A stretch of 64,000 bases of DNA from an uncultured Candidatus Saccharibacteria bacterium (GCA_964350735.1 CAYGKO010000004.1:83583-147582), one strand, 5' to 3'. Numbered from the stretch's first letter, positions 7,469 to 53,822 are shown. Notes: generated from the sequence alone by a model not told the origin. Made by a program: numbers and translations.

Positions 7469-8140
7469 TTACGGATTACTCAACCGATACTCCGTCGCAT
7501 CCCCAATCATCTGATTCACCACTCGTTCATGCGTTTCTGGCGTAATGTGTTCGTAGCGTAGAAGTTCGTCAGCTGCATCAATACCGCGCTGTAAATTCCC
7601 TCCTTCAGGAATGCTCTGTATAGACATGAGATTAGAACTTCCTAGTGCAGCCCCACCAGTGTAGTTATACTCTTCTCGTAACGCACTGTAGGGGTTATCA
7701 AGCGGCGCTGGACCACAACCATGTAAGCCGAACTGCCGACAATCAGCTGCTTCAGGACGAGGTGTTGGTAGTGGAGACGTAGGTGTACTCCCGTCAGGCA
7801 ATACTGCTCCTTCCGGTCGGGCCCCAGGCACGGGCGCCTCAAGTGGTGCAAACGGGCTCACCGCTTCTTCGACATCTACCCCAAACGTAGCAGCGGCAAT
7901 AGACAATATTGTATACGCGGACAGCATTATCAATAAACCAATCAAACCCCATAAAATATGTTTCTTCCCCTTTTCTTTGGCTTGCGGATTACTAGCTCCT
8001 GCCACATATTCAAAACAACCATACAAAAAGAAAATCACTGCTACCACTGTCATTAGCGTGATCAAAGGGAAGAAAATAGCTGCATTCAATTTCTGAACGA
8101 AGCTTTTAGCTAAATCTACGGCAGCGGCATGAACAATCAT
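7469..8140 (-). CDS. VirB2/TrbC-like (T4SS-pilin-like) two-TM protein with a Pro- and Cys-rich C-terminal domain
   Basis: N-terminal module LITLMTVVAVIFFLYGCFEYVAGASNPQAKEKGKKHILWGLIGLLIMLSAY is TM-loop-TM with a charged turn. Last gene of the four-gene operon. The N-terminal ~95 aa is paralogous to 26206-26523. Confidence 0.6.
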   Translation of the reverse strand: MIVHAAAVDLAKSFVQKLNAAIFFPLITLMTVVAVIFFLYGCFEYVAGASNPQAKEKGKKHILWGLIGLLIMLSAYTILSIAAATFGVDVEEAVSPFAPLEAPVPGARPEGAVLPDGSTPTSPLPTPRPEAADCRQFGLHGCGPAPLDNPYSALREEYNYTGGAALGSSNLMSIQSIPEGGNLQRGIDAADELLRYEHITPETHERVVNQMIGDATEYRLSNP

Positions 8141-8149
8141 AAAATGTAA

Positions 8150-8971
8150 TTAGTTTGCATACAATGAAAAATGATTTCCTGTCGCAACTCCCTCTACACA
8201 ATTACTAGCTCCTAGACAAGATCCACCAGGACCTGGTTCATACACCGCTCGAAACCCCAATGCTGTCGCTTGTGCTTGAAAGGATTTCACACGTTCAGAA
8301 GTCCAGTCTCGATCTTTGAATACAATATCTACACACGTCCCGTCTCCGTGACAAGCTGACTTATGAGTTCGAGTGGGTGGAAATCCTTCAGTTACCTCAA
8401 GTTCAACACCACTTGATCGTGCGAGTCCGGCTAAACGCTCGCCGTATTCTGCCTCAACCGTACAACTTCTAGAATTTTTACATGAAACTGCAGTTGAAAT
8501 ATCAACACACGTAGGGCAGCCTGCACTAGCCTTTGCAGACAACTCAGTACCCGCCTCAGGCCCTTCTAAAGCATTAACATCACGAGCCACCGGCTTCACC
8601 ATACCACCACACTCTACCAGCCCCCACGCATCCAAACCACCAGAGTCAGTGGTGATTCGCAATACAGTATCCACAATCAACCACGCAGACAACACAATAA
8701 TGAATCCAATCACCACATTAGTGAACAACCCTTTTGCTTCAGCAGCTGCGCTCGAGTTTCCACCTGAGGTGAGCAGCTTAACGCCAGCCACGGCGATCAT
8801 AATGACCGCAATCACCACACAAATGGTAATCAGAAAGTTAACAATCCCATTTACCATATCAAGCAAGTTGCAGAAGTCACACTCGGGACCAGAGCAGGTT
8901 ACTAACGCAGCGGTCGCAAACTCAGGTATAGCTGTCACTAGTAAAACTGGAATGAGAAAAAGAAATTTCAT
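8150..8971 (-). CDS. Secreted protein with a VirB2-like pilin module and a Cys-rich C-terminal domain, possibly an M15-like peptidoglycan peptidase
   Basis: Signal peptide MKFLFLIPVLLVTAIPEFATA. Pilin-like hairpin VNGIVNFLITICVVIAVIMIAVAGVKLLTSGGNSSAAAEAKGLFTNVVIGFIIVLSAW. C-terminal HKSACHGDGTCVD...GNHF resembles the Zn-ligand pattern S-x-H-x-x-G-x-x-D...H of M15 peptidases. The peptidase call is inference only. Confidence 0.55.
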   Translation of the reverse strand: MKFLFLIPVLLVTAIPEFATAALVTCSGPECDFCNLLDMVNGIVNFLITICVVIAVIMIAVAGVKLLTSGGNSSAAAEAKGLFTNVVIGFIIVLSAWLIVDTVLRITTDSGGLDAWGLVECGGMVKPVARDVNALEGPEAGTELSAKASAGCPTCVDISTAVSCKNSRSCTVEAEYGERLAGLARSSGVELEVTEGFPPTRTHKSACHGDGTCVDIVFKDRDWTSERVKSFQAQATALGFRAVYEPGPGGSCLGASNCVEGVATGNHFSLYAN

Positions 8972-8973
8972 AT

Positions 8974-9489
8974 TTATTGAAACAATACAGCGTCAGGGCA
9001 AAAACTAAGACCAAGCTCCTGTCCCGCAAAAAACTCATTGACTCCAGCCCTGGTTCGTACTGATACGTCTAAAGAGCAAGCTGTCTCTTTATCTAGATTT
9101 AATGCTGATAAAAATGCCTGCTCTGCAACAACTCGCACCTCAGCTAGTGGCTCGGCCTCTAAGCTGATCTGGAAGTAATTATACGACTCATAGAACGTTA
9201 AGGCATAAGGTTCGTTTTCTACATCAAAACCACCCGCAAAAACCCAAGCATCGGTACCCACTTGATCAGCTCGTTCTTTCACATTTGTGATAGTAATTAA
9301 TTGACCTTCTTTATTTAAAATCATCAACGAAGTCTGCTCTCCTGGTACACCTGATGAGACTGGGGACGTGATATCAACAAAATCAACGGCTCTCGGTTCA
9401 GACACATCCACTGTGGTACGCAAGAAATAACTCACTATAACTATAAGCATCAGTATCCCAGCTACGATGACTAGTATATTTTTAAACAT
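8974..9489 (-). CDS. Hypothetical membrane-anchored protein (N-terminal TM helix); operon member
   Basis: Length is 171 aa. N-terminus ILVIVAGILMLIVIVSYFL. Gaps of 2-3 nt to both flanking genes. Confidence 0.55.
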   Translation of the reverse strand: MFKNILVIVAGILMLIVIVSYFLRTTVDVSEPRAVDFVDITSPVSSGVPGEQTSLMILNKEGQLITITNVKERADQVGTDAWVFAGGFDVENEPYALTFYESYNYFQISLEAEPLAEVRVVAEQAFLSALNLDKETACSLDVSVRTRAGVNEFFAGQELGLSFCPDAVLFQ

Positions 9490-9491
9490 AT

Positions 9492-10445
9492 TTATCTTAG
9501 TTTACACAGATTATTACGGGAAGTTTGCACACCACACTTTACCGCACTACAGGCCCAGTCACCTAAATCTCCCGACTGTTTAGCCAGCCTGATTGCTATT
9601 TGTTCATTACACTGAGGGTACTGAGCAGCTTTTGTTCGACACTCAGCAGCAAGAGCTTCTTTGCCGGACACTACGGCATATTTTTTAATGCCGTTTGAGC
9701 TGCGGCCATCTTCCTTGAACGCACTCGGGCAATCTAGGTTTAGTGGACCGTCAGGTGTATCACACTGTAATTTATGAACTGGGAGGTTGATTTGAAAGGT
9801 GCCTACTGAGTATCCACCTCCACCAGTAAGTTTATCAGTACCGCTCTCAGCCGTGGCGTTGCAACCACTCTCTTGACTCACAATTTTTGCCATATCGCCA
9901 GCAAAATCTCCCCAACCCCGACTTCGTAGAGCATCTTCACTACAAGGTCCCGATTTTGCAGCTACACAACTACCAGCTAAAGCGCTGGAGTTTCCAATAA
10001 AGCCTGTGCCTGATCGGTCCGCTAAGGGAACCTCAACTGGTCGGGTGGGATAAATACACTCCACCGTGCGCCAGTTTAAGGATGGATTACCGTCATCAAT
10101 CAAAACTCCAAACAAAAGATCGATGAAAAGAAACGCCGCTAAGATAATAATATATCCAATTGCCACATTAGTAATCATCTCCTTGGCTTTTTTGGCTGCA
10201 TCAGCATTTCCACCCGAGGTCAGCATTCGGAAGCCAGCAAATATAAACACTAATACTGCGATACTCGAAGCAAGCACGATAATAAACTGGATCAGATTAT
10301 TTACCAGCTGTACAAACTCACACGTACCACAACTCGATGGGTCGTTACCAGAACACTGCAGTGGCACTAGCTGTTCAGCCTGGACCAGCTCGGGAGTCAG
10401 TAACACCAACAGCAAGACGACGGGAATAATCAGAAATCTAAACAT
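9492..10445 (-). CDS. Secreted fusion protein: VirB2-like pilin module plus a family-1 lytic transglycosylase (VirB1/Slt-like) domain
   Basis: The likely true start is the internal ATG at 10445, which gives the signal peptide MFRFLIIPVVLLLVLLTPELVQA. The ORF track extends to 10658. Pilin-like hairpin LIQFIIVLASSIAVLVFIFAGFRMLTSGGNADAAKKAKEMITNVAIGYIIILAAF. Lytic-transglycosylase motifs IVSQESGCNATAE (E-S) and GYSVGTFQIN (GLMQ-like). Confidence 0.65.
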   Translation of the reverse strand: MFRFLIIPVVLLLVLLTPELVQAEQLVPLQCSGNDPSSCGTCEFVQLVNNLIQFIIVLASSIAVLVFIFAGFRMLTSGGNADAAKKAKEMITNVAIGYIIILAAFLFIDLLFGVLIDDGNPSLNWRTVECIYPTRPVEVPLADRSGTGFIGNSSALAGSCVAAKSGPCSEDALRSRGWGDFAGDMAKIVSQESGCNATAESGTDKLTGGGGYSVGTFQINLPVHKLQCDTPDGPLNLDCPSAFKEDGRSSNGIKKYAVVSGKEALAAECRTKAAQYPQCNEQIAIRLAKQSGDLGDWACSAVKCGVQTSRNNLCKLR

Positions 10446-10681
10446 ACGCGTAATAGTAAAATGGTAGCACACTACAGGAGGCTTTTCTCCGCCTCGAAGA
10501 TATGGTAGTTTATAGCACTTGTGAATGCTTGGAGGCCTAGCTACCAACGCACTCAGAAGCAAATGCGTCGGTGGCAGAAATAAAGCGGATAGCTTTATTT
10601 CAAAAATCGGAGCACGATGTGAGCTTGCGAACCAGTGCGACCACACTTTGTTTTGCAATTATAAAAATGAGTAGTCACTAC

Positions 10682-24138: not shown

Positions 24139-25521
24139 GTGACAGACCCCACCAACATCAACCCTACAGCGTGGCTTCGCCACGCTGATGAACAGGAGTT
24201 CATTGACATGGATACACATCTCAAAAAGGCCCTATGGTTTTTAGGAGCAGCTGCTTTCATTACAGCAGTTTACTTGCTCTTGCCCGCATTTGGCTGGAAT
24301 CCAGGATACTGGAGCTGGCCGATGCTTGGAACAGTAGTTATCTTATCCACAGCTGTTTTATGGCAGCTTTGGAAAGGTTGGTTAAGCAACTGGTGGACTC
24401 CAGTCCAGCAGACGCAAGCAACACCTCCTGGAGCTACACCACCTGCCACACCAGCAGTTCCTCCATCAACATCAATCAGAAGGAGCCATACTATGCAGAC
24501 TCTGTCTCCGAACGGTCTCACACCGTTTCAGCAGCAGATTTCCACCTTTTGTGCTGCAATAGCAGCATCTCTATTGACTGCTCGCATCATCGCTACCTTC
24601 GTTTGGAACACCGAGCAGGGATTCACGATCATTGCGATCTTTTCTCTACTCTACTTCCTGGTCGGAGGCGCTTATCTCAATGGTGGCCTCGAACACTCTG
24701 TACAGGGATTTCTTGGGAGGCCGACGCCATGGGTACTGATCAATGGTCTATCATGGGGTCTCCCTCGACCATTTGGCCAGTCCCTCTTTAGGCGTTCAAT
24801 TGCTCCTCAAACGAGCAACTTTGAAGGAGAGAATGCCATTGCTCAAGTTAACGCTCGGGACGGTGGCCAGGTAAGTGTTGGAGTAGTCAAACAATGGCGT
24901 ATTTGTGACGTACGATTAGCTGGACAATTTACACCCGAGGTACTCGCATCACGCGTACGTGATGTTGAAGACCGCGGTGTTCGCTGGTTTGCACTCTATT
25001 ACGACTCTGATGGAACCGGAGCAAACAACCTCACTCACCAAAAAGCGCCCTTCTCGCGCTACCTGATTGGTGACGAAACACTAACAGAGATCAAACTGTT
25101 CGATGAAAGAGGTGTCGAAACTGGCACCTACAGAATTGACCATAATGATCCAAACTCAATGCGTAACAAGTTTGCTTTGCTTGGTGTGGAAGCAATTACT
25201 GCTGAAGTTAAGGACGTCAATCCTCCGCAAGAAGTTATTGACGCTCGAAACGGAGCGGCAGCAGAAGCTGGTCAAGCTGAGAGTGAGAAGCGAGACATTG
25301 CATCTTTTCGTGCGCGAGTACTTGAAGCTCAATACGGAACAAGTGATCCGGATGAGATGAAGAGGCTTAGAAGTCAAGCTGGTTTCGAACCAGCAATGTC
25401 TAGAGAAGATGCTGTTCGCGAAGTACGAGCTGCACGAAAAAACCTCACCGACATCAACGTCAGCGGAAGCGCTGGTGATTTCACCAAAGGTGCTGCCCTT
25501 GGCGGTACCAAACAACCTTAA
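24139..25521 (+). CDS. Membrane protein with a C-terminal SPFH/band-7 (stomatin/prohibitin-like) domain
   Basis: N-terminal TM segments and a Pro/Thr linker. C-terminal VEAITAEVKDVNPPQEVIDARNGAAAEAGQAESEKR resembles the SPFH signature followed by an Ala/Glu-rich coiled coil. Confidence 0.55.
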   Translation: MTDPTNINPTAWLRHADEQEFIDMDTHLKKALWFLGAAAFITAVYLLLPAFGWNPGYWSWPMLGTVVILSTAVLWQLWKGWLSNWWTPVQQTQATPPGATPPATPAVPPSTSIRRSHTMQTLSPNGLTPFQQQISTFCAAIAASLLTARIIATFVWNTEQGFTIIAIFSLLYFLVGGAYLNGGLEHSVQGFLGRPTPWVLINGLSWGLPRPFGQSLFRRSIAPQTSNFEGENAIAQVNARDGGQVSVGVVKQWRICDVRLAGQFTPEVLASRVRDVEDRGVRWFALYYDSDGTGANNLTHQKAPFSRYLIGDETLTEIKLFDERGVETGTYRIDHNDPNSMRNKFALLGVEAITAEVKDVNPPQEVIDARNGAAAEAGQAESEKRDIASFRARVLEAQYGTSDPDEMKRLRSQAGFEPAMSREDAVREVRAARKNLTDINVSGSAGDFTKGAALGGTKQP

Positions 25522-25531
25522 GGAGGTTCCT

Positions 25532-26131
25532 GTGACAACCATACAAGACCTGCGAGGATGGATCTTGACTATCCTGATCATCATCGCAACCGTTGTTCTA
25601 CTTCGGTATTTATTGCCTGAGTTCGACACAATGCCAGAAAGCCGATCGGTGGCAGAATCCACCTTTCTCCAAAACTGGCGTTGGGTCGAGATTGCTGGAT
25701 GGATCATGCTCATTGCGGGCGTGATCGCATTCGCCGTGTCTTTGACCCGCTGGGTCGATGGTGGAGGCACAGTCGGCATCGTAGCTGCCATCGTTGGCGG
25801 TCTCGTGTTGGCCGGTTTCTACGGCACCGTCTCAGCTAAGCAAGACGGACTTTCCCTACCCGGAAGTTCGACGACGATCGACTGGACTAAGAACTTCAGC
25901 TCAGATGTCTTTGTAGCAAATGCTACAGGAACTAGAAAAGCTATGATCAACGACTGCGTAGTGTCTCCCGACGCAACGCATTCAATCAAAGGATCGTATG
26001 CCACTTGGACGCCAAAGAGTGGTGTAACCTCTGAAATCATCGTCTACTACTTCCCCAAAAAGAAAGGGAGTTGCGAAGCTGCCTACTTGGCTATTCAAGC
26101 AGCTCTCCAGGCGGAAAAAGCAGATGAGTGA
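25532..26131 (+). CDS. Membrane protein, hypothetical
   Basis: AAGGAGG RBS 6 nt before the GTG at 25532, directly after the upstream stop codon. Three predicted TM helices. The ORF track's ATG at 25409 would overlap the upstream gene. Confidence 0.5.
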   Translation: MTTIQDLRGWILTILIIIATVVLLRYLLPEFDTMPESRSVAESTFLQNWRWVEIAGWIMLIAGVIAFAVSLTRWVDGGGTVGIVAAIVGGLVLAGFYGTVSAKQDGLSLPGSSTTIDWTKNFSSDVFVANATGTRKAMINDCVVSPDATHSIKGSYATWTPKSGVTSEIIVYYFPKKKGSCEAAYLAIQAALQAEKADE

Positions 26132-26205
26132 CGGTTCTTTGGCATTGCCCTATTGCCGGGCTGGACCACTTCATGCATACGCATGTGGTGGTCCTTTTCT
26201 TTTGC

Positions 26206-26523
26206 CTACGGTATAAACGCTGACGGTGCAAAGCTGCTCCCCGGCTCTTGGACTTCAATCCCAAACGTGGCAGCAGCGATCGACAAAATAGCGAAGGCAG
26301 ACAACATTACCAGGAGCCCTATCAGCCCCCATAAAATGTGCTTACTCCCCTTCTCTTTTGCTTGTGGGTTACTCGCTCCTGCCACGTATTCAAAACAACC
26401 ATACAAAAACACAACTAGTGCAATTACGAGCATCAGAGTAATTAATGGATATAAAATAACTTCCAAAAGCTTATTGACAAAGGTTTGGGCAAAATCTGCG
26501 GCTGGTCCGGCGTAGGCAATCAT
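26206..26523 (-). CDS. VirB2/TrbC-like pilin-domain protein; paralog of the 7469-8140 N-terminus
   Basis: LYPLITLMLVIALVVFLYGCFEYVAGASNPQAKEKGSKHILWGLIGLLVMLSAFAILSIAAATFG is about 80% identical to the 7469-8140 product over ~90 aa. DNA-level identity is visible. Confidence 0.6.
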   Translation of the reverse strand: MIAYAGPAADFAQTFVNKLLEVILYPLITLMLVIALVVFLYGCFEYVAGASNPQAKEKGSKHILWGLIGLLVMLSAFAILSIAAATFGIEVQEPGSSFAPSAFIP

Positions 26524-26577
26524 ACGAAAGTGAGTCTGGATTCTGAACTAGTCAGAATCCAAGTCAATTTCCAATGA

Positions 26578-26943
26578 CTAGTTTGAAGTGGGAACGTTTG
26601 GCAGGTTCTCAATATTTTCATCATCTGAAAAACCAAGACCACCAGCGATCAGATTCACAATACCGAAAACTGATACCATAATCACAAATCCCACAATCGC
26701 ATAGATCATGTACGTCCGGCCCTCTTCTCGCTTATCAGAATCATCTCGCCCAATAATCAAGAAGTTGAACACACCGTAGAGGAAGAACAAAAGTGCTACC
26801 GCAAAAAGTAACGGGATCAATGTACTGTTAATAAAAGATGAGATATCACCAAGGAAGTCATTGATCTCTCCAAATTGGGCTCCGGCTACCGCTGGCATGA
26901 GCGCGAGCATAAAAGCACCTAGACTGACTGAAATAAATTTCAT
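26578..26943 (-). CDS. VirB2/TrbC-like small two-TM protein with a C-terminal NLPNVPTSN motif
   Basis: Signal peptide MKFISVSLGAFMLALMPAVAGA. Hairpin LLFAVALLFFLYGVFNFLIIGRDDSDKREEGRTYMIYAIVGFVIMVSVFGI. Confidence 0.55.
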   Translation of the reverse strand: MKFISVSLGAFMLALMPAVAGAQFGEINDFLGDISSFINSTLIPLLFAVALLFFLYGVFNFLIIGRDDSDKREEGRTYMIYAIVGFVIMVSVFGIVNLIAGGLGFSDDENIENLPNVPTSN

Positions 26944-27034
26944 ACAAACGTAACTAATTAATTTTTATACTATAAGTATACCGCTAAACTGGCTATATAA
27001 AAGGACTTTCTACCTACCCTGTGTATAGTGCACT

Positions 27035-27292
27035 TTACAAACCAAAGAGTGAATTGCGGAGTATTTCAAGAATCCCCCACACTCCTGACATCACTATCAG
27101 CACCAACACCCCAACCAGTGCTGTCTGCTTCCCTTCGTCCACCTTGGTTTGGTCGCCACCATTGATCACCCAGGCGTCAATGATCTTCCAGATGATGAAT
27201 AATAGCGTCAGGGCAAAAATAAGTGGTACCGCTAAGCTCAGTAAGCCGATGAATAAATCTACTAAATCTGCGAAATTTTTAGGTGTGCCCAT
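27035..27292 (-). CDS. VirB2/TrbC-like small two-TM protein
   Basis: Length is 85 aa. LAVPLIFALTLLFIIWKIIDAWVINGGDQTKVDEGKQTALVGVLVLIVMSGVWGI. Confidence 0.5.
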   Translation of the reverse strand: MGTPKNFADLVDLFIGLLSLAVPLIFALTLLFIIWKIIDAWVINGGDQTKVDEGKQTALVGVLVLIVMSGVWGILEILRNSLFGL

Positions 27293-27295
27293 AGA

Positions 27296-27802
27296 TTAGA
27301 TCGTTATCGCCTTAACTGTGCCTTCAATGACTCTCAGAATAACGAAAGCACCGAGAATAAGAATCCCACCAATCACTGAGTACAGCAAAGCTTTGTTGGC
27401 TTGAGAGATCTGTTCCGGATTGCCCCGAGCGGTGACGTACAGGAAGCCAGCGTAGATAATAAAAAATACGATCAACGGAGTAGCGAAGACCAGAACTACT
27501 TCAATCAGATCCATGAACAGATCAGTGATGGAGGTAGCTTTGAGAGGATTTTTGATAGTGACAGAACCTCCGCCAGAAGGAGATTCCCGCTCGCCAACTT
27601 CGCTACCATCTCCCCCAAAAGCGTCTAGAGGATCTCGCTCGCCAACTTCACCAACGTCGCCTCCGAAAGCGTCTGAAGGATCTCGAGCTCCAACTTCACC
27701 AACGTCGCCTCCGAAAGCGTCTAGAGGGTCTTCAGCAAACGTAAAATGAACAACTGCTAACTGGGAGCAGATCATTAGACATATCACTAGTAAAAATTTC
27801 AT
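27296..27802 (-). CDS. VirB2/TrbC-like protein with N-terminal tandem DPxDAFGGDVGEVGxR repeats
   Basis: Signal peptide MKFLLVICLMICSQLAVVHFTFA. Three or more 18-aa repeats. C-terminal hairpin LVFATPLIVFFIIYAGFLYVTARGNPEQISQANKALLYSVIGGILILGAFVIL. Confidence 0.6.
   Translation of the reverse strand: MKFLLVICLMICSQLAVVHFTFAEDPLDAFGGDVGEVGARDPSDAFGGDVGEVGERDPLDAFGGDGSEVGERESPSGGGSVTIKNPLKATSITDLFMDLIEVVLVFATPLIVFFIIYAGFLYVTARGNPEQISQANKALLYSVIGGILILGAFVILRVIEGTVKAITI
27560..27730. repeat. Intragenic tandem DNA repeat, about 54 nt x 3, encoding the DPxDAFGGDVGEVG units
   Basis: gatctcg(a/c)(g/t)c(gc/t)ccaacttcaccaacgtcgcctccgaaagcgtct(a/g)gagg repeated head-to-tail. Confidence 0.7.
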
Positions 27803-27803
27803 A

Positions 27804-29108
27804 TTAAAAACTCAAGGTTATGCGATCAACTGCGTCACTCACTGCTTCACTAATCCGGGCACGGTTTGAGGCGACGTCTTCGATCATAGTTTGTAGTATA
27901 CCACCCGTACTGGCTGGATTCGGGTCGAGCCAACCGGCCGAGATAAGCGCCGCATTGAATATAATCTGTTCAAAGGCTCCGCTACTTCCTCCTCCTAAGA
28001 CCGAACGATGCACTGGTGCCATCTGCAATTCACGTGAGAGAGCGAGCGCGACATCTGGCCGCGCTAGTGTCTGAGCGGCGGCGTACGCCCCGTTACTATT
28101 GCCAGCTGCCCGTGGAATTGCAAAGCCGTAGAAATTACCGTACGTACGTCGAATCGTCGCGTTAGCTCCCTGCGGGACCATGGCAGCATCAAAGTTTAGA
28201 TTTGGATTACGATCAGAAATTAAACCGACTTCACTACCAAATCCAAAGTAAAGAGCGAGGTCGCCCGCGATAAAAGCAGTCCGGTCTTCGGCCAAAGCTC
28301 GATTCCAACTGTAGGCCGGGCTATTGGCGTTGGCGAAGTCTGTATAAAACTGCAGCGTCGCATCCATTGGCGCGCGACTGGTTTGCTGTCCTTGATTGAG
28401 AGCTACCACATACCCCCGATCTCCTTCTTCTACCATTCGACTACCCGACTGGAGTAAGAGCATTGAAAATACTGCCGTCGCATTACGGACGTTGCGGTAC
28501 TCACCAAAGGCAATTGCGCTACGTAGAATTGAACGATTACTATCACGCTGAGTCAGCGCTGGCACTACTGACCCCACTAATCCTTCCCACGTTGTTGGTG
28601 CTTGCGCTAGACCAGCGCCAGAAAAAATGTCGCGGTTCCAGTAGAGAATAATTGGATCAACCACAAACGGCAACGCGTAGACACCATCGCGTAACGCAAA
28701 GATCTCAGCTCCATCCACATAACTATCTCTGAATTGTCGTTCTGGTAAACTCTCGTATGGAATCGGAAGCAGCTTAGCTCGTAAATTCACGAGCTGGTGA
28801 TGTGGCAAGACAATAAGATCAGGCGAACGTCCTTCAGCGATAGCGTTCACTAAGTCACTATTAAAATTTCGCGCATCTACTTGGGTGTATCTAACCACTT
28901 TAAAGTTTTCGTTTTGGTCTTTCAGGGTATTGAAGATAGGAGTGAACGCCTCACTGGGTAATGAGCCCCAAATAATCACTTGCCCGCCATAGAGCTGCTC
29001 TTCAGTAGATGCACTCGGGCGATAATTACCAATCAGCACCAGTGCTACCAAAGCCATGACAGCAAAGACCGCCAGTAGAACAATTTGAAATGGTCGAAGA
29101 TTGCTCAT
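27804..29108 (-). CDS. Extracellular solute-binding protein (ABC-type SBP family 1-like) with an N-terminal TM anchor; orphan, no permease or ATPase nearby
   Basis: The pattern KVVRYTQVD...SPDLIVLPHHQLVNL...YALPFVVDPIILYWNRDIFSGAGLAQAPTTWEGL matches SBP_bac_1 hallmarks. Length is 434 aa. Confidence 0.55.
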   Translation of the reverse strand: MSNLRPFQIVLLAVFAVMALVALVLIGNYRPSASTEEQLYGGQVIIWGSLPSEAFTPIFNTLKDQNENFKVVRYTQVDARNFNSDLVNAIAEGRSPDLIVLPHHQLVNLRAKLLPIPYESLPERQFRDSYVDGAEIFALRDGVYALPFVVDPIILYWNRDIFSGAGLAQAPTTWEGLVGSVVPALTQRDSNRSILRSAIAFGEYRNVRNATAVFSMLLLQSGSRMVEEGDRGYVVALNQGQQTSRAPMDATLQFYTDFANANSPAYSWNRALAEDRTAFIAGDLALYFGFGSEVGLISDRNPNLNFDAAMVPQGANATIRRTYGNFYGFAIPRAAGNSNGAYAAAQTLARPDVALALSRELQMAPVHRSVLGGGSSGAFEQIIFNAALISAGWLDPNPASTGGILQTMIEDVASNRARISEAVSDAVDRITLSF

Positions 29109-29110
29109 AG

Positions 29111-29671
29111 CTATGGTTTACGAAAAGCTAATCCATAATGATGGTCGCCAGCATCGTAGGAACGTTCATACACAAAGCCAGCAGATTCCGCTAGAGCTTT
29201 CGTTGCGGATTCATCAAACACGTGACCTGGCTGTGGACCAAGTCCATTAAACGATTCACTCCAGTCAACCACAAACAGCTTGCCCCCTGATCTCAGCGTG
29301 CGGCTGATCTCTTGTAAAGCTATTGCTTTGTCATCCATTTGAAACAGTGTATTGATAAGGATTGCAGCGTCGAGCACTTCTGATTCTAATTTAGAACCCT
29401 GCAGGACTTCCAAATCGCACCATAACGTATCGATATTATTCAGCTGTTCTTTTCGAGCGATTTCCCCTAACTTCTCCACCAAACTCTTTTGGATTTCGCA
29501 GGCATAAATACGACCAGAACTCTCCACTGCTGCAGCCAAAGCTTTAAGGAAATAGCCACTGCCAGCTCCGAAATCAGCCACGATATCACCCGGGCGCAAG
29601 TGGAAATGCCCAACCACTTTGTCAGGTTCTACGAAGCGACCGGTCATGGGTGGGGTTTGATTCATTATCAA
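29111..29671 (-). CDS. Class I SAM-dependent methyltransferase
   Basis: Motif I VADFGAGSGYF. Post-I acidic residue. Motif LFVVDW. Length is 186 aa. Confidence 0.75.
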   Translation of the reverse strand: MIMNQTPPMTGRFVEPDKVVGHFHLRPGDIVADFGAGSGYFLKALAAAVESSGRIYACEIQKSLVEKLGEIARKEQLNNIDTLWCDLEVLQGSKLESEVLDAAILINTLFQMDDKAIALQEISRTLRSGGKLFVVDWSESFNGLGPQPGHVFDESATKALAESAGFVYERSYDAGDHHYGLAFRKP

Positions 29672-29710
29672 TAAGTATACCGCACGAATATTTGTAAAAT
29701 AATCATGATG

Positions 29711-30064
29711 TTAGTTATTAGTTGTTGGCACGTCAGGCACCCGCTGCAATCGTACTTCTTCACGCACGTTGATACCGGCTTCACCGTCACCATCTAAATC
29801 TGAATTGGTGACCAAACCTGAGTACGCAGAACCAAGCCAGATGAATCCCATAACGATTCCGTAAATAGCCAAACCTAATAGGAACAAAAGGAATGACCAG
29901 AGAAGCTGCTCACGGCCTTCTTCTCGTTTAGGCTCTTCACCGGGACCAATCACGAAGTAATTGATGCAACCATACAAAAACATAATCAAACCGATCGCAA
30001 AAATAAACGGGATTAGATAGACCGTGAAAAACGTAAAGACATACCCAAGAATAGTCGATATCAT
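29711..30064 (-). CDS. VirB2/TrbC-like small two-TM protein with a C-terminal RVPDVPTTNN motif
   Basis: LIPFIFAIGLIMFLYGCINYFVIGPGEEPKREEGREQLLWSFLLFLLGLAIYGIVMGFIWL. Confidence 0.55.
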   Translation of the reverse strand: MISTILGYVFTFFTVYLIPFIFAIGLIMFLYGCINYFVIGPGEEPKREEGREQLLWSFLLFLLGLAIYGIVMGFIWLGSAYSGLVTNSDLDGDGEAGINVREEVRLQRVPDVPTTNN

Positions 30065-30162
30065 TCCGTATAGTGTAGCATTTTGATTTGGGTGCGCTGC
30101 GGAGAAAAGAGGAAAACGGCCGCAAGCAAAGCTTGCGGCCGTTTTCCTCTTTTACGCCACTC

Positions 30163-32640
30163 TTAGGTCATCACCACGATCGTCGCGATCGAGTCACCAG
30201 CCCGCATCTTCATCACCTTCACTCCTTGTGTATCACGTCCTAATGTCGGAACATCCTTGAGAGGCAACTTGATCACTTGTCCTTTTTTACTCATTACTAC
30301 CAACTCGCCTTCGGCTTTTTCTTCTTGCGAAAGCACTGCTCCACCGACTAGTTTTCCAGTTTTGCTGGTCACCTTTGCTGTCTTAATACCACTACCACCT
30401 CGATTTTGCACTTTGTATTCCTTGGCTGGTGTGGTTTTTCCAAATCCGTTTTCCATGACTACCAATATCTCTCTATCAGTATTACCAGCAGCCAATACTT
30501 CAGCCGAAACTAGGTAGTCGTCTTTTTTCAGCTTCATCGCTCCGACTCCAGCCGCTGTACGGCCCATTTGTCGTACATCGCTCGCTTTGAATCGAATTGC
30601 CTGTCCTTCATGAGAGATGATAGACACCTCATCTTTTGGACCAATGAACTGGGCTGCAATGAGTGCATCATCATCCTTAAGCGTAATAGCAATCAGTCCA
30701 CTTCGGCGCACATCTTTGAAGGAGGCTGCATCAGATTTTTTAGCGACGCCATTTTTCGTGACCATCATCAAGCTCCAGTCACCTGTCCACTCATCTTTTC
30801 GCACCGGCAATACTGATGTGACTTTTTCATCACCGTTAACTGACAAGAAGTTAGCAATTGACTTTCCTTTAGTAGCCCGTCTTCCTTCGGGGATTTCGTA
30901 CATTTTGCACTGATAGACTTTTCCTTTATCGGTAAAGAAAAGAAGATCACTGTGTGATGAGGTAGTCAAAAGCATTGTCACCACATCTTCTTCTTTAGTA
31001 TTTAAGTCAACTACACCAACACCACCCCGCTTCTGCACCTTATACTCAGCTGGATTGGTTCGTTTGACGTACCCACCCTGAGTCAGCACCAACACAGACT
31101 CTTCGTCTGCAATCAAGTCTTCAGCTGACATGTTTTTGACGCCGCCCTTTACAATCTTCGTGCGGCGTTCATCACCAAACTTCTCAGCAATCTCTTCGAG
31201 ATCTTGCTTCACGATTGCCATCATCTTCTTCTTGCTTTTAAGGATCGCGTCAAGCTCTTTGATCAGCTTCTGGATCTCTTTTAGCTCATCCTCAATTTTC
31301 TTGCGCTCGAGGCCAGCCAACTTCTGTAGTCGCATGTCAAGAATCGCTTGCGCCTGAACCTCTGAAAACTTAAATTCCTTCATCAACTTAGCGTGCGCTT
31401 CAGGCACATCTTTGGCAGCTCGAATGATCTTGATGATCTTGTCGATGTGGTCAAGAGCCTTCTTTAGCCCAAGCAAGATATGTTCGCGGTCTTGAGCCTT
31501 ATTAAGGTCGTACTGCGTTCGACGTCGAATAACTTCTGCTCGGTGCTTAACGAACTCCTGCAGAATTGTTTTCAATGACACTGTCTGAGGTACGCCATCC
31601 ACAAGCGCCACCATATTGTAGTGGAACTTATCTTCGAGCTGCGTGTGCTTGTAGAGCTTATTTAAAACTGTCTGCGGGTTAGCACCGCTCTTAAGGTCGA
31701 TCACTACTCGGATATCGCTGGTTGACTCATCACGCATTTCTTTGATACCTTCCACCTTTTTGTCTCGTACCAAATTCGCAATCTTCTCCTGCATATCTGC
31801 TTTGTTCACACGGAACGGGATCGATGTAATGACGATTGAGAAGTTTCCTTTTTTGTCTTCAACTATTTCAGCTTCGCCGCGCACTACCACACCACCGCGT
31901 CCATTGGCGTACGCGTGAGCGATATCTTTTTTATTAAAAGCCACTCCTCCCATCGGGAAGTCTGGACCTTGTACAAACTTAAGCAGATCATCAGTGGAGG
32001 CACTTGGATTATCGATCAAGTGTCCTACTGCCGCTGAAATTTCTCGCAGGTTGTGTGGTGGGATATTGGTCGCCATTCCCACGGCAATTCCAAGGGTTCC
32101 CATGAGGAGTAGGTTTGGCACAGCAGCTGGCAGTACCACCGGCTCTTTCTTGGTACCGTCGAAGTTTGGTCGCCAGTCGACAGTATCTTTTTCAAGGTCA
32201 CGCAGCATCTCTTCTGCCACCTTAGACATCTTCGCCTCAGTATATCGATACGCCGCTGCTGAGTCACCGTCGATTGAACCAAAGTTTCCTTGCCCGATTA
32301 CGAGTGGGTAACGAGTCGAGAATGTTTGAGCCAGCTTTACCATTGATTCGTACACTGCAACGTCACCATGCGGGTGAAAGCTACCCAAAACGTCTCCCAC
32401 TACCGTCGCAGACTTTTTAAACTTCGCGGTTGAGGTCAGACCATTAAGGCGCATCGAATACAAAATACGACGATGTACCGGCTTCAGCCCGTCGCGAATA
32501 TCAGGCAGGGCTCGACTGGTGATTACACTCATCGCGTAGTCGAGATAGGCAGTTTGCATCTCGTCAGTAATATTCTGTGGAATGATTCCACGAGCCTGTT
32601 CTGGGATTGGTGCGTCAGCTTTAGTGGTCTTTTTCGGCAT
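30163..32640 (-). CDS. gyrA: DNA gyrase subunit A
   Basis: Length is 825 aa. N-terminal [12 protein letters not shown] with the catalytic Tyr region. C-terminal beta-pinwheel repeats. gyrB is not adjacent. Confidence 0.93.
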
Positions 32641-52034: not shown

Positions 52035-53822
52035 CTATTCTGTCAAAAATCCACCGGCTTGATGCTCCCAGAGCTTTTGGTAAGTGCCGCCCGCTTTAGC
52101 CAACTGGTCATGAGTACCGTCTTCGACAATCTGTCCACCTTCGAGGACCAGGATGCGGTCCATTTCACGCAATGTAGATAATCGGTGCGCCACAGCAATG
52201 ACTGTCTTCCCTTCCATTAGTTCATGCAGGGCTTTTTGGATCAACACCTCACTTTCACTATCAAGGGCTGAAGTCGCTTCATCAAGCACTAAGATCGGGG
52301 CGTCTTTCAGCATTGCGCGTGCAATCGCCACCCGCTGCTTTTGACCACCTGAAAGCTTCACGCCGCGTTCTCCGACGAGGGTATCAAACTTCTCGGGCAG
52401 GTCGAGGATGAAGTCGAGCGCCTGGGCTTTGGCGGCTACCGCGCGGATCTCACTCTGGGTTGCCTCAGGCTTGCCGTACGCAATATTTTCCCGAATGGTC
52501 CGGTGGAACAAGAGGGGTTCTTGCGGCACCACCGCGATGTTCTCTCGGAGTGAATCCTGCGTCACCTCCGCAATATTCTGTCCATCAATTTCAATCGCCC
52601 CGCCATTGATATCGTGTTGTCGTAGTAAGAGTGACACAAAGGTGGTCTTCCCTGCCCCAGATGGACCAACGAGCCCAACCCGCTGCCCTGGTTCAATCTT
52701 CAAATTAAAGTCCTTAAAGACTTTGTTAGCCCCAAATTCAAAGTTGACGTCCTTCCAGTTAACCAAACCTCCGGTAGTTTCAAGAGTTTTGGCTTCTGGA
52801 ATATCTTGAATTTCGTGATCAATAAGTAACTCACTGAGCCCTTCCTCCGCCTCCCCATACGCTGCTGCCGTATGATTGAAAGTCCGCCCAATAGTTGTCA
52901 GCGTGTGTGCCACATTTAACACAATCACCATTACTGCAACGAACGAGCCGGTTGTGATAGCGTCTGCCGCCCAGCGATCTGTCAGCTGCAGAAACATGAA
53001 AAAAGTAAACCCAAGTACAATTATCACACTCACTAACTTCATGTATTCGGTATAGATCCAAGAGATTGAGTGTTTTTGTCGGGCGTCCATCGTCAGATCT
53101 TCTACATGTCTCTTCTCTTCAGGAAAACGAACATACTGTCGGGTAGCAGTAATATTAGTAAACACATCTACGATCCCTCCTTTCATTTTAGTATTACTAG
53201 CAGCAGTATTTAGTGAAAATTTACGTTGTCTTGGGACTAAAAGTATATTAACAACCACCAGCACAACCACTAAGGCTAGAAATATCATACCGGTCTTACT
53301 ATCGATGGTAAAAATAACGATCGCGGAAGCGACGATAGATACAAAACCTTCTAAATGGCTCCATAACAAATCTTGCACAAAACGATCAACAGCATTCACC
53401 GCATTACCAATCTTATTTAAGAGTGATCCCGCAAATCGATCGGCAAAATACTGATTACTGTGCTTAAAAGTATAAGCGGCCAGAATCTCACTCGTGTCTT
53501 TACGTATACCTAAAAGCCACATGCGGCCAAAAACAATGCCACTAATCCGCCAGAGTATTTCAGTAATGAAAATTCCTACTGGATACAGAAGACCTAGAAA
53601 AACAACTTCTTCTATCAAACCCGCTTCGGCCAACGTAATTACTTCTCCCATTAAAAGTGCGAGGAACACCTTGGCTGATGAACTGATAATCACGACTGCA
53701 ATACCACCAAAAGCCCACCATTTATACGGCTTTGAAATGTAGAAGAAAAATCTAAACGGTCCATTCGGTATATCACCGGTATATGCTGCCTTCTGGGCGG
53801 TTGTAGGTTCTGTGGTATTCAT
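52035..53822 (-). CDS. ABC transporter permease/ATPase fusion (MsbA-like type I exporter)
   Basis: Six-TM N-terminal domain. Walker A GPSGAGKTT. Signature LSGGQKQR. Walker B ILVLDEATSALD. Length is 595 aa. Confidence 0.9.
   Translation of the reverse strand: MNTTEPTTAQKAAYTGDIPNGPFRFFFYISKPYKWWAFGGIAVVIISSSAKVFLALLMGEVITLAEAGLIEEVVFLGLLYPVGIFITEILWRISGIVFGRMWLLGIRKDTSEILAAYTFKHSNQYFADRFAGSLLNKIGNAVNAVDRFVQDLLWSHLEGFVSIVASAIVIFTIDSKTGMIFLALVVVLVVVNILLVPRQRKFSLNTAASNTKMKGGIVDVFTNITATRQYVRFPEEKRHVEDLTMDARQKHSISWIYTEYMKLVSVIIVLGFTFFMFLQLTDRWAADAITTGSFVAVMVIVLNVAHTLTTIGRTFNHTAAAYGEAEEGLSELLIDHEIQDIPEAKTLETTGGLVNWKDVNFEFGANKVFKDFNLKIEPGQRVGLVGPSGAGKTTFVSLLLRQHDINGGAIEIDGQNIAEVTQDSLRENIAVVPQEPLLFHRTIRENIAYGKPEATQSEIRAVAAKAQALDFILDLPEKFDTLVGERGVKLSGGQKQRVAIARAMLKDAPILVLDEATSALDSESEVLIQKALHELMEGKTVIAVAHRLSTLREMDRILVLEGGQIVEDGTHDQLAKAGGTYQKLWEHQAGGFLTE

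Follow-up and report, generated by a model that had tools for sequence, protein, structure and literature searches.

The cluster lies in a window of 64,000 nucleotides, the whole stretch of DNA that was analysed, downstream of gyrA in an ultrasmall bacterium of the Paceibacteria/CPR. It comprises seven co-directional minus-strand ORFs at positions 26206-30064, and the ORF check of the window placed all of them, including five that encode small proteins of 85-168 aa, exactly where the preliminary description had put them. The first gene after gyrA, pilE (29711..30064), encodes a VirB2-like two-TM protein of 117 aa. It is followed by MT (29111..29671; 186 aa as the longest ORF), a cytoplasmic class I SAM-dependent methyltransferase, and by SBP (27804..29108; 434 aa), a membrane-tethered solute-binding protein with the MalE fold. 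Then come pilD (27296..27802; 168 aa), with a putative signal peptide, three 16-aa acidic repeats and a two-TM domain of the Pfam family PF18895, and pilC (27035..27292; 85 aa), a two-TM protein with neither an evident signal peptide nor a Pfam match. The last two genes are pilB (26578..26943; 121 aa), where a putative signal peptide and a PF18895 domain are followed by a C-terminal P-N-V-P tail conserved in the ortholog alignment, and pilA (26206..26523; 105 aa), a PF18895 protein. The intergenic gaps are 2 nt (MT-SBP), 1 nt (SBP-pilD), 3 nt (pilD-pilC), 91 nt (pilC-pilB) and 54 nt (pilB-pilA). Co-transcription of MT and SBP, proposed earlier, is almost certain.

The gathering cut-off of PF18895 (T4SS_pilin) is 26.6 bits for the whole-protein HMM score. 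Three of the five small proteins exceed it, pilA with 30.3, pilB with 32.8 and pilD with 31.8 bits; pilE scores 16.8 bits, below the threshold. In profile-profile comparison with hhalign, the pilC and pilE families match the pilB family with probabilities of 99.7% (E 1e-25) and 99.5% (E 2e-22), respectively, and thus pilC and pilE belong to the PF18895 superfamily. All five proteins have two long hydrophobic segments flanking a short charged loop, as seen in hydropathy and in the loop motifs of the alignments, and the core of about 70 aa with two hydrophobic helices and a short charged loop that defines PF18895 is present. The loop motif is KREEGR in pilB and pilE and KEKG in pilA; the loops are mixed-charge, not clearly basic. 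Hence the initial view of these proteins as VirB2-like two-TM paralogs with a charged turn holds, by Pfam score for three of them and by hhalign for two. Another operon in the window, whose proteins had been noted for the same architecture (7469-10445 in the preliminary description, 7469-10658 here), also encodes three PF18895 proteins; pilA and the N-terminal domain of the protein at 7469-8140 share 72% identity. Pairwise identity among the paralogs of the cluster itself is just 20-36%.

The relationship to canonical VirB2/TrbC (PF04956) is, by sequence, one of remote homology only. The scores of pilB and pilD against this family are 14.4-14.5 bits, below the cut-off of 27.9. Many pilD orthologs carry a precomputed PF18895 assignment, and PF04956 is also assigned to 9 of the 65 matches to the pilD query. 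No solved VirB2 structure could be detected by sequence from the small proteins. Across the whole profile of NCBIfam NF045849, pilA, pilB and pilD score 37-39 bits, just under the cut-off of 40. Inspection of the sequences reveals N-terminal hydrophobic segments ending at A-x-A-like sites in pilB and pilD; signal peptides are evident only in these two, whereas the N-terminus of pilA, pilC and pilE is at once an amphipathic stretch leading into TM1. The acidic repeats of pilD are encoded by an in-frame tandem repeat (48 nt, three copies, 27588-27731). pilC has 1272 representative homologs at E<=1e-3, and about 30 of the best 150, which are metagenomic proteins, have 2-4 modules in tandem within a single chain, suggesting that the modules co-assemble. 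A fusion of the SBP with a pilin was searched for among homologs and not found.

The class I assignment of the embedded methyltransferase proved correct, as several class I models score above threshold (Methyltransf_31, 49.3; Methyltransf_11, 47.3; Methyltransf_25, 43.1 bits). The SAM-binding GxGxG motif, D33-x-G35-x-G37-x-G39, is invariant in the alignment. No NCBIfam model comes near its cut-off, and the closest PDB relatives, 3dh0 and 3i9f, are both uncharacterised methyltransferases. The true start of MT is probably the ATG at 29665 rather than the start of the longest ORF.

The solute-binding protein was correctly described as TM-anchored and SBP_bac_1-like: its score is 60.9 bits, where the cut-off is 26. 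An N-terminal TM helix (positions 6-27, with conserved F7, Q8 and F15) and a tether (28-43) precede the solute-binding domain, which has the two-lobe class II fold of the SBP_bac_1 family. The AF2 model has a pLDDT of 94.6 and a pTM of 0.88. Foldseek aligns it with MalE and other oligosaccharide-binding proteins at E of about 1e-20 and TM scores of 0.6-0.7, and with MalE in the MalFGK2 complex 3puy at E 2e-20. Among 78 sequences, 41 positions are at least 95% identical, including F7 and F15 inside or beside the TM anchor. The N-terminus, MSNLRPFQIVLLAVF..., on inspection has neither G/A at the -1 position of prepilins nor the acidic residue at +5. Homologs are titled 'ABC-type glycerol-3-phosphate/multiple sugar transport system substrate-binding protein' in the source records. 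The ligand is probably carbohydrate-like.

Between the gyrA stop codon and pilE there is a perfect 23-bp hairpin (30105..30153, minus strand) with a folding energy of the RNA of -48.5 kcal/mol (z = -9.3 against shuffles). It is a probable terminator of gyrA, insulating the cluster from gyrA transcription. The exact 13-mer GCGGTATACTTAT, containing the -10-like TATACT, has just two occurrences in the window, both within the cluster and on the minus strand. One lies directly upstream of MT (29671..29683) and may be the promoter of MT-SBP-pilD-pilC, the MT mRNA then being leaderless or near-leaderless; in related loci, a GGTATACT/TGTATAAT box precedes the ATG of MT by 6-10 nt. The other, 28 nt upstream of the pilB ATG (26972..26984), is a candidate promoter of pilB and possibly pilA. 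The cluster appears to contain two transcription units, MT-SBP-pilD-pilC, with gaps of 1-3 nt, and pilB-pilA. Just past the pilC stop codon there is a DnaA-box-like motif CTATACACAG (27019..27027, minus strand) whose position is conserved in relatives: the pattern [AT][TC][AC]CACA occurs about 30 nt or less past the pilC stop (mostly less than 20) in 28 of 52 loci, compared to a background of 1.8% of 48-nt windows.

A Pfam scan of the window's 39 larger ORFs (85-899 aa; about 25 shorter non-nested ORFs were left out) found no permease or ATPase of an ABC importer, no VirB4/VirD4 and no type IV pilus ATPase. The sole ABC protein among them is an exporter-type fusion of TMD and NBD (52035-53822). 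A motif screen of about 976 kb around 81 loci (L001-L081, +/-8 kb) for Walker A plus LSGGQ and for the EAA loop found no EAA loop and just one ABC-ATPase-like ORF, which lies at a distance of 6-7 kb in one of the loci. In the 80 loci found with MT, no gene separates SBP from the pilins; the phmmer queries used on these loci were 16 proteins of the window that did not include any ABC component. No complete ABC importer lies beside the cluster in the loci examined, and the small proteins do match a pilin family and recur as a cluster in relatives, so that neither outcome named beforehand as refuting the first description was seen. VirB4, VirB6 and the coupling protein are absent from the scanned ORFs of the 64-kb window and are not conserved within +/-8 kb in 80 loci; since no T4SS core gene is nearby, the only link of the locus to a T4SS is the homology of the small proteins. 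All this agrees with the earlier statements that the SBP has no ABC partner locally, that no T4SS or type IV pilus ATPase is present, and that the genes do not amount to a canonical transporter or to a conjugation system.

The preliminary description had suggested an inspection of the context in related genomes, and about 160 loci of Paceibacteria were compared, 80 from genomes (found with SBP) and 80 from metagenomes (found with MT). Nearly all retain the block MBL-x-gyrA-MT-SBP-pilins on one strand, with MT as the leading gene of the block in 73 of the 80 SBP-found and in all 80 MT-found loci. The order pilD-pilC-pilB-pilA is kept in closer lineages. The gap between SBP and the first pilin gene has a median of 3 nt and is at most 10 nt in 62 of 76 loci, and it is always pilD that is coupled to the SBP stop codon; the median gaps are 9 nt from MT to SBP and 8 nt from the first to the second pilin. 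The median identity of orthologs to the window protein is 49% for pilD, 48% for pilC, 44% for pilB and 51% for pilA, compared to 47% for SBP, 57% for MT and 81% for gyrA. Judging from these alignments, each position of the array is its own ancient ortholog group under purifying selection, conserved as much as SBP. pilE, present in seven of the 80 genome loci, is a lineage-specific extra member, and the number of pilB-like genes varies from 3 to 7 between lineages. The block is chromosomal and conserved class-wide in the Paceibacteria (Patescibacteria/CPR), and is neither a mobile nor a variable locus. Synteny throughout the class is likewise seen for the housekeeping neighbours (the MBL-fold gene, gyrA, rhodanese, IF-2), and thus conserved gene order alone is no proof of function. 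In Ca. Yanofskyibacterium parasiticum, gyrA-MT is directly followed by four PF18895 genes, with SBP missing (PMC10936435, supplementary file 4), so that the array can exist without SBP. These genes are all transcribed, at levels like those of recA and TraC/VirB4 (PMC10936435).

The explanation we favour, with a rough probability of 0.45, is that the locus encodes a VirB2-like assembly, heteromeric and of fixed make-up, in which the SBP is the module for recognition of a ligand or host glycan. The pilin paralogs would most likely co-assemble in a fixed composition, either as a membrane hetero-oligomer or as a mixed short filament, because their per-position orthology is ancient and chains of 2-4 modules occur naturally. 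The assembly may be part of the T4SS-like surface apparatus of Patescibacteria, with the genes for the ATPase core at another place in the genome. The MalE-fold domain would be held at the membrane by the conserved TM helix, translationally coupled to the pilins and in physical contact with them, and would recognise its ligand for the assembly rather than serve as the receptor of an ABC importer. MT would be a cytoplasmic partner, with its reach limited to the conserved cytoplasmic loops of the pilins (G-G-D-E-x-K-R-E-E-G-K/R) or to N-termini before export.

This assembly differs from the locus for a variable surface filament or an adhesin that had been proposed at first. Spelled out, that reading would mean a battery of diverse pilin-like proteins able to replace one another, as in antigenic or host-range variation. 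The low identity of the array paralogs and the differing number of pilB-like genes are what such a battery would show, and a survey proposes that variation may help adaptation to different hosts (PMC12102498). Position-specific orthology, at 44-51% identity across the class and level with SBP, favours a fixed heteromeric assembly, and few gene orders in the class are as well conserved as that of the block, with the D-C-B-A order stable in closer lineages. Neither recombination substrates nor silent cassettes turned up, and the only repeat is the one in pilD. The variable battery is thus largely refuted, and we give it very little credence. Somewhat better, though still unlikely, is the possibility that the SBP works as an ordinary receptor for an ABC importer of carbohydrates, the permease and ATPase of which are encoded elsewhere in the small genome, the adjacency to MT and the pilins being inherited and functionless. 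The full-length SBP_bac_1 match, the MalE-like fold and its conservation of aromatic and polar residues, the names of the homologs, the equal synteny of unrelated housekeeping genes and the block of Yanofskyibacterium can all be read in this way. It is hard to reconcile with the near absence of ABC importer components from the 81 loci and their absence from the scanned ORFs of the window, with the translational coupling implied by the short gap between SBP and the first pilin, and with conserved F7, Q8 and F15 in the anchor, unexpected in a passive tether.

Another possibility, a little less probable than the ordinary receptor, is that the two-TM proteins are not pilus subunits but membrane subunits of a new binding-protein-dependent uptake conduit: the SBP would pass a solute taken from the host to a hetero-oligomeric channel of pilD, pilC, pilB and pilA, which might be energised by a T4SS ATPase encoded elsewhere. 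The known roles of SBPs are in import or sensing, and a fixed, ordered heteromeric set with tandem fusions of 4-8 TM segments resembles a polytopic complex more than a homopolymeric filament. The nearest relatives outside the CPR are in ICEs of the wall-less Mycoplasma, for which no pilus is known; the name 'pilin' may therefore be wrong for what is a subunit of a membrane channel, a point that also counts against the favoured explanation. It has also been speculated that the essential T4SS of Saccharibacteria serves nutrient or nucleotide acquisition (PMC11665869). Against this, SBP-dependent transport via VirB2-like proteins has no known precedent, the operon has no energising component, 4-5 hairpins without polar pore-lining residues are a weak basis for a channel, and the Yanofskyibacterium block does without SBP. 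The most novel form, which we hold to be similarly improbable, is a previously unknown import or host-capture device made of the SBP and the VirB2-like hairpins: the MalE-fold domain would bind a glycan-like ligand derived from the host at the epibiont-host interface and feed or gate a hetero-oligomeric conduit of pilD, pilC, pilB and pilA, with MT modifying the cytoplasmic pilin loops. If true, it would be the first direct hint of a patescibacterial T4SS-like apparatus working inward.

The SBP shares the class II fold, the SBP_bac_1 family and conserved aromatic residues with MalE-type oligosaccharide-binding proteins (3puy_E, 6dts, 2zyo, 4r9f), but is only 15-17% identical to them, has a TM anchor with conserved residues, and is adjacent to VirB2-like genes instead of an operon partner permease or ATPase. 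In Agrobacterium, the sugar-binding SBP ChvE has a functional connection with a type IV secretion system; it works via the sensor kinase VirA, regulating the vir genes, whereas the operon described here contains no kinase. An analogy, and no more, is offered by the bindosome (Bas) of Sulfolobus, where surface sugar-binding proteins are organised together with small pilin-like proteins (PMC3047682). There the SBPs carry signal peptides of class III, the prepilin type, and depend on a membrane protein and on an ATPase resembling that of type IV pili (PMC3047682); in the present cluster the SBP does not begin like a prepilin, the small proteins resemble VirB2 rather than type IV pilins, and no assembly ATPase of the bindosome type was found in the window.

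Mbov_0395 and ICE_MMCAP2_0565 of Mycoplasma ICEs (NF045849) share a two-TM module of about 80 aa with pilA, pilB and pilD, and the near-threshold scores fit the descent from MPF-FATA that has been reported for the T4SS of Patescibacteria. The Mycoplasma proteins are single-copy and ICE-borne, whereas the pilins here are multi-copy and chromosomal. Arrays of VirB2-like pilins in Patescibacteria are already published (Cell 2023; Microb Genom 2025; PMC10633639, PMC12102498). The T4SS locus of Saccharibacteria holds an essential pilin series (PMC10633639), represented in Southlakia epibionticum ML1 (SEML1_0006-0019) by about six divergent but structurally similar VirB2-like two-TM proteins in tandem (PMC10633639, PMC12857230). 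The array considered here is likewise tandem, chromosomal, without relaxase logic and from a monoderm-type patescibacterium; however, the ML1 pilins lie within a T4SS cluster with VirB4, VirB6 and VirB8, whereas these lie apart from any T4SS core and share an operon with SBP and MT. The survey of Patescibacteria lists 441 VirB2 arrays of 2-11 genes in 383 assemblies (PMC12102498). Like the array here, where pilD-pilC-pilB-pilA are in tandem and pilE is set apart by MT and SBP, they consist of PF18895/PF04956 proteins in tandem or interrupted by a non-pilin gene, with a within-array identity of about 25% (20-36% here). They are commonest in Microgenomatia and Saccharimonadia, whereas the present array is a position-conserved set in Paceibacteria. 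The survey reads array diversity as possible host-range versatility and does not mention an SBP, ABC or gyrA context (PMC12102498). In the literature that was searched, we found no pilin array that shares an operon with an orphan SBP and MT at a site apart from the T4SS core. The fixed link between a pilin array and a binding protein appears to be undescribed, and it provides a testable clue to the role of patescibacterial pilins.

Seven co-directional genes occupy the minus strand at 26206-30064, at exactly the positions given in the preliminary description. In order of transcription they are pilE (29711-30064, 117 aa), the class I SAM methyltransferase gene MT (29111-29671, 186 aa), the gene of a membrane-tethered solute-binding protein, SBP (27804-29108, 434 aa), pilD (27296-27802, 168 aa), pilC (27035-27292, 85 aa), pilB (26578-26943, 121 aa) and pilA (26206-26523, 105 aa), where pilA-pilE denote five small VirB2-like proteins with two transmembrane (TM) segments. 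The intergenic gaps in the ORF listing are, from pilE to pilA, 39, 2, 1, 3, 91 and 54 nt. The upstream gene is gyrA (30163-32640). As the rest of the window contains housekeeping genes (topA, relA/spoT, parB, clpB, IF-2, S1, pth, lepB, ftsA/ftsZ, glmS, a leuS-type tRNA ligase and tsaD), the location is chromosomal and not a mobile element.

Pfam was run on 39 of the larger ORFs of the window (85-899 aa; about 25 shorter non-nested ORFs were set aside). Among these 39 there are no permeases or ATPases of ABC importers, no VirB4, VirD4 or VirB6 and no type IV pilus ATPase, in agreement with the absences listed earlier. The only ABC protein in this set is an exporter-type fused TMD-NBD (52035-53822), 24 kb from the cluster. 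On the other side of the cluster, the plus strand carries a convergent SPFH/Band-7-like membrane protein (24139-25521, weak Band_7 match) followed by a 240-aa multi-TM protein (25409-26131, weak DUF6234 match). These ORFs overlap by 113 nt, and thus one of the two starts is probably mis-set. Many relatives also have an SPFH/Band-7-like protein immediately after the pilin array; these proteins fall into several divergent clusters.

The description of the small proteins as VirB2-like is borne out. PilA, PilB and PilD pass the threshold of PF18895, the patescibacterial T4SS_pilin family (30.3, 32.8 and 31.8 bits, gathering score 26.6), and have weak TrbC/VirB2 matches as well; they also score 37-39 bits, just under the cut-off of 40, with NF045849, the NCBIfam model of the pilin-like conjugal transfer protein of Mycoplasma ICEs. 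PilE is below the PF18895 threshold and PilC has no Pfam match; both are placed by profile-to-profile comparison of ortholog alignments, in which their families match the pilB family with 99.5% (pilE) and 99.7% (pilC) probability. All five proteins have a short charged loop between two long hydrophobic segments, and PilB and PilD have an additional N-terminal segment resembling a signal peptide. The matches of the pilB-family profile among PDB sequences, to FliL and cytochrome oxidase, are all chance similarities of TM segments.

PilD contains three in-frame copies of a 48-nt tandem repeat (27588-27731, minus strand), encoding three acidic 16-aa units D-P-L-D-A-F-G-G-D-V-G-E-V-G-E-R that follow the signal peptide and precede the hairpin. 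Since the lengths of PilD orthologs vary from about 120 to 230 aa, the variable part is this N-terminal segment. The pilB and pilE families have a common C-terminal tail (I/V)-P-(N/D)-V-P-x-x-N, encoded at approximately 26581-26610 and 29714-29745. TrbC and VirB2 undergo C-terminal maturation, and by analogy this tail may serve in processing or recognition. PilC has 1272 relatives at E<=1e-3 (phmmer, 1.84 billion representatives). About 30 of the best 150 of these are single chains in which one signal peptide precedes two to four hairpin modules in tandem, e.g. the metagenomic proteins P0250, P0256, P0273, P0317, P0326 and P0383 (270-360 aa), with linkers of 30-50 aa containing Gly, Ser and Cys. 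Such natural fusions are evidence of the Rosetta-stone type for different modules acting next to each other. The fused proteins terminate in I-P-Q-V.

Three further PF18895 proteins, sharing the architecture of the small proteins as described earlier, are encoded by a second minus-strand operon (7469-10658). Here the hairpins are fused to long C-terminal domains, predicted to be extracellular. The 388-aa protein (9492-10658) has an E-S...G-T-F-Q-I motif and a lysozyme-like PF18896 (SLT_3) match below the cut-off (E 0.0019), the tail of the 273-aa protein (8150-8971) is rich in Cys, and in the 223-aa protein (7469-8140) there is a Pro-rich linker with a small domain. The pilin hairpin may hold wall-active domains at the membrane or on a filament.

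SBP matches SBP_bac_1 over its whole length (60.9 bits). An AlphaFold2 model built from 116 sequences (pLDDT 94.6, pTM 0.88), used instead of one from 21 sequences (pLDDT 62), consists of an N-terminal helix (residues 6-27), a low-confidence tether and a two-lobe domain. Foldseek relates it to MalE and other oligosaccharide-binding proteins (E ~1e-20, TM 0.6-0.7, 15-17% identity), and weak profile matches in PDB to sugar-binding proteins agree with this. The anchor (residues 1-30, approximately 29019-29108) has the motif N-L-R/S-P/K-F-Q, lacks a lipobox and is not prepilin-like. The unusually high conservation of its residues F7 (99% of homologs), F15 (96%) and Q8 (71-90%) hints at packing of the helix with partner membrane proteins. 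Membership in a Sulfolobus-type bindosome is rejected, as SBP has no class III signal and there is no type IV pilus ATPase among the scanned ORFs. A query joining the C-terminus of SBP to PilD had 65 matches and no SBP-pilin fusions among them, a result that does not count as proof of their absence. Pfam places MT among the class I SAM enzymes. Its scores with NCBIfam models are all well below the cut-offs, and the closest solved relatives, 3dh0 and 3i9f, are uncharacterised structural-genomics proteins.

Homologs of SBP, about 435 aa long, number more than 2000. Its relatives are named Paceibacteria, Parcubacteria, and Kaiser-, Nomura-, Campbell- and Zambryskiibacteria. A scan with SBP as the bait, one genome per species, produced 80 loci, in which ORFs were called and then searched with the window proteins. 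Nearly all of them contain, on one strand, an MBL-fold gene, a small protein, gyrA, (pilE), MT, SBP and three to seven pilin genes. The order pilD-pilC-pilB-pilA is retained in the closer lineages (DCBA or DCBa in 27 loci, DCB in 7 truncated ones); more distant lineages have an inserted first member resembling the 8150 or 9492 protein of the second operon, and additional pilB-like copies. An independent scan of metagenomic contigs with MT as the bait added 80 loci, with MT, SBP and pilins wherever the contig extends past MT. The downstream neighbours, convergent SPFH-like membrane proteins, rhodanese, IF-2 and RbfA, are conserved as well, and the window has the same set. Since the class shares the gene order of the entire region, its conservation alone does not prove function, and the argument for coupling rests on near-zero gaps: the median distance from SBP to the first pilin gene is 3 nt (at most 10 nt in 62 of 76 genome loci), from MT to SBP 9 nt and between the first two pilins 8 nt, the later gaps being 50-80 nt.

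Between gyrA and pilE there is a perfect 23-bp inverted repeat flanked by A- and U-runs (30105-30153, minus strand; -48.5 kcal/mol, z -9.3), likely the terminator after gyrA. A generic scan of 25900-30400 for sigma-70 promoters and terminators found sites no commoner than in shuffled sequences; it counts at most 20 stem pairs and does not list this hairpin. The -10-like boxes were recognised by reading the sequence and comparing loci. The 13-mer GCGGTATACTTAT occurs exactly twice in the 64-kb window, both times on the minus strand: directly 5' of the MT start (29671-29683) and 28 nt 5' of the pilB ATG (26972-26984). Related loci (L002-L046) have GGTATACT or TGTATAAT boxes at both equivalent places, 6-10 nt from the MT ATG in the first case. 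These boxes point to two promoters, one in front of MT and the other in front of pilB; the MT mRNA would be leaderless, with translation starting at the ATG at 29665. Between pilC and pilB there is a conserved site TATACACAG (27019-27027, minus strand), which we take to resemble a DnaA box. The word (T)TAT(A/C)CACA(G) follows the pilC stop codon within about 30 nt, mostly less than 20, in 28 of 52 loci (background 1.8% of 48-nt windows), with two consecutive copies in locus L022. It is not enriched across the window as a whole and is notable only by its position after pilC; it may be a regulatory site between two transcription units.

In the 31 loci with all genes, the median identity to the window protein is 81% for GyrA, 57% for MT, 47% for SBP, and 51, 44, 48 and 49% for PilA, PilB, PilC and PilD, whereas the window paralogs are 20-36% identical to each other, the exception being PilA and the N-domain of the 7469 protein (72%). 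Thus the proteins at each position of the array form an ancient ortholog group of their own, conserved independently of the others and evolving about as fast as SBP. Judged from these sequences, such position-wise orthology agrees with a heteromeric assembly of fixed composition but not with variation in antigens or host range. The preliminary description stands as an observation of genes, families and absences; its interpretation is supported in part, the view of the array as a variable adhesin battery being highly improbable.

The reading that we find best supported, though tentative, and to which we assign a probability of roughly 0.45, is that the hairpins form a fixed hetero-oligomer within a patescibacterial T4SS-like surface apparatus whose core would be encoded elsewhere, away from the cluster. 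The co-translated, TM-tethered SBP of the MalE fold would serve this assembly as a ligand or host-glycan recognition module, in an operon led by the cytoplasmic MT. SBP could also be the receptor of a normal ABC importer whose other components are encoded far away, its position here being preserved by the synteny of the whole region; a motif screen of about 976 kb of flanks (L001-L081) found one ORF with Walker-A and LSGGQ motifs and no EAA-loop permease. However, the near-zero gap between SBP and the pilins speaks against this, and we consider it unlikely. A new binding-protein-dependent import conduit built of hairpins is slightly less likely still.

Patescibacteria, which live on other cells, account for a large part of bacterial diversity. 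Their T4SS-like system and VirB2-like arrays are essential in the one species tested, their role being termed completely unknown (PMC11665869). The class-wide, translationally coupled link between array and SBP points to recognition or capture of a specific small ligand or glycan by the assembly. The position-specific orthology and the natural tandem fusions speak for a defined hetero-oligomer, and less for antigenic variation. The coupling with SBP and MT, the orthology and the fusions make the function of the arrays more testable, and answers would constrain models of the interaction between ultrasmall epibionts and their hosts.

VirB2-like arrays as a kind are already known in Patescibacteria. 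Series of divergent pilins are established, and that of Southlakia epibionticum is essential and lies inside a T4SS locus (PMC10633639; PMC12857230), whereas no VirB4, VirD4 or VirB6 accompanies the present array among the scanned ORFs. A survey with the same Pfam models catalogued 441 VirB2 arrays of 2-11 genes, reading their diversity as possible host versatility, and does not mention SBP, ABC or gyrA context (PMC12102498). Where Paceibacteria have been enriched on methanogens, pilins of the T4SS rank with the most highly expressed secreted proteins. We found no open-access paper linking SBP to patescibacterial pilin arrays; as far as found, there is likewise no earlier description of the operonic coupling with SBP and MT, of the position-specific orthology or of the tandem fusions. 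Ca. Yanofskyibacterium parasiticum, a Paceibacterium from a cultivated enrichment, has gyrA, MT and four PF18895 genes but no SBP (PMX_810_sub_00750-00755, with TraC/VirB4, 00739, listed about 11 genes off), all of these genes being transcribed at about the levels of recA and TraC/VirB4 (PMC10936435, supplementary file 4). Thus SBP is not indispensable, and the link between MT and the pilins reaches past the SBP-bearing lineages.
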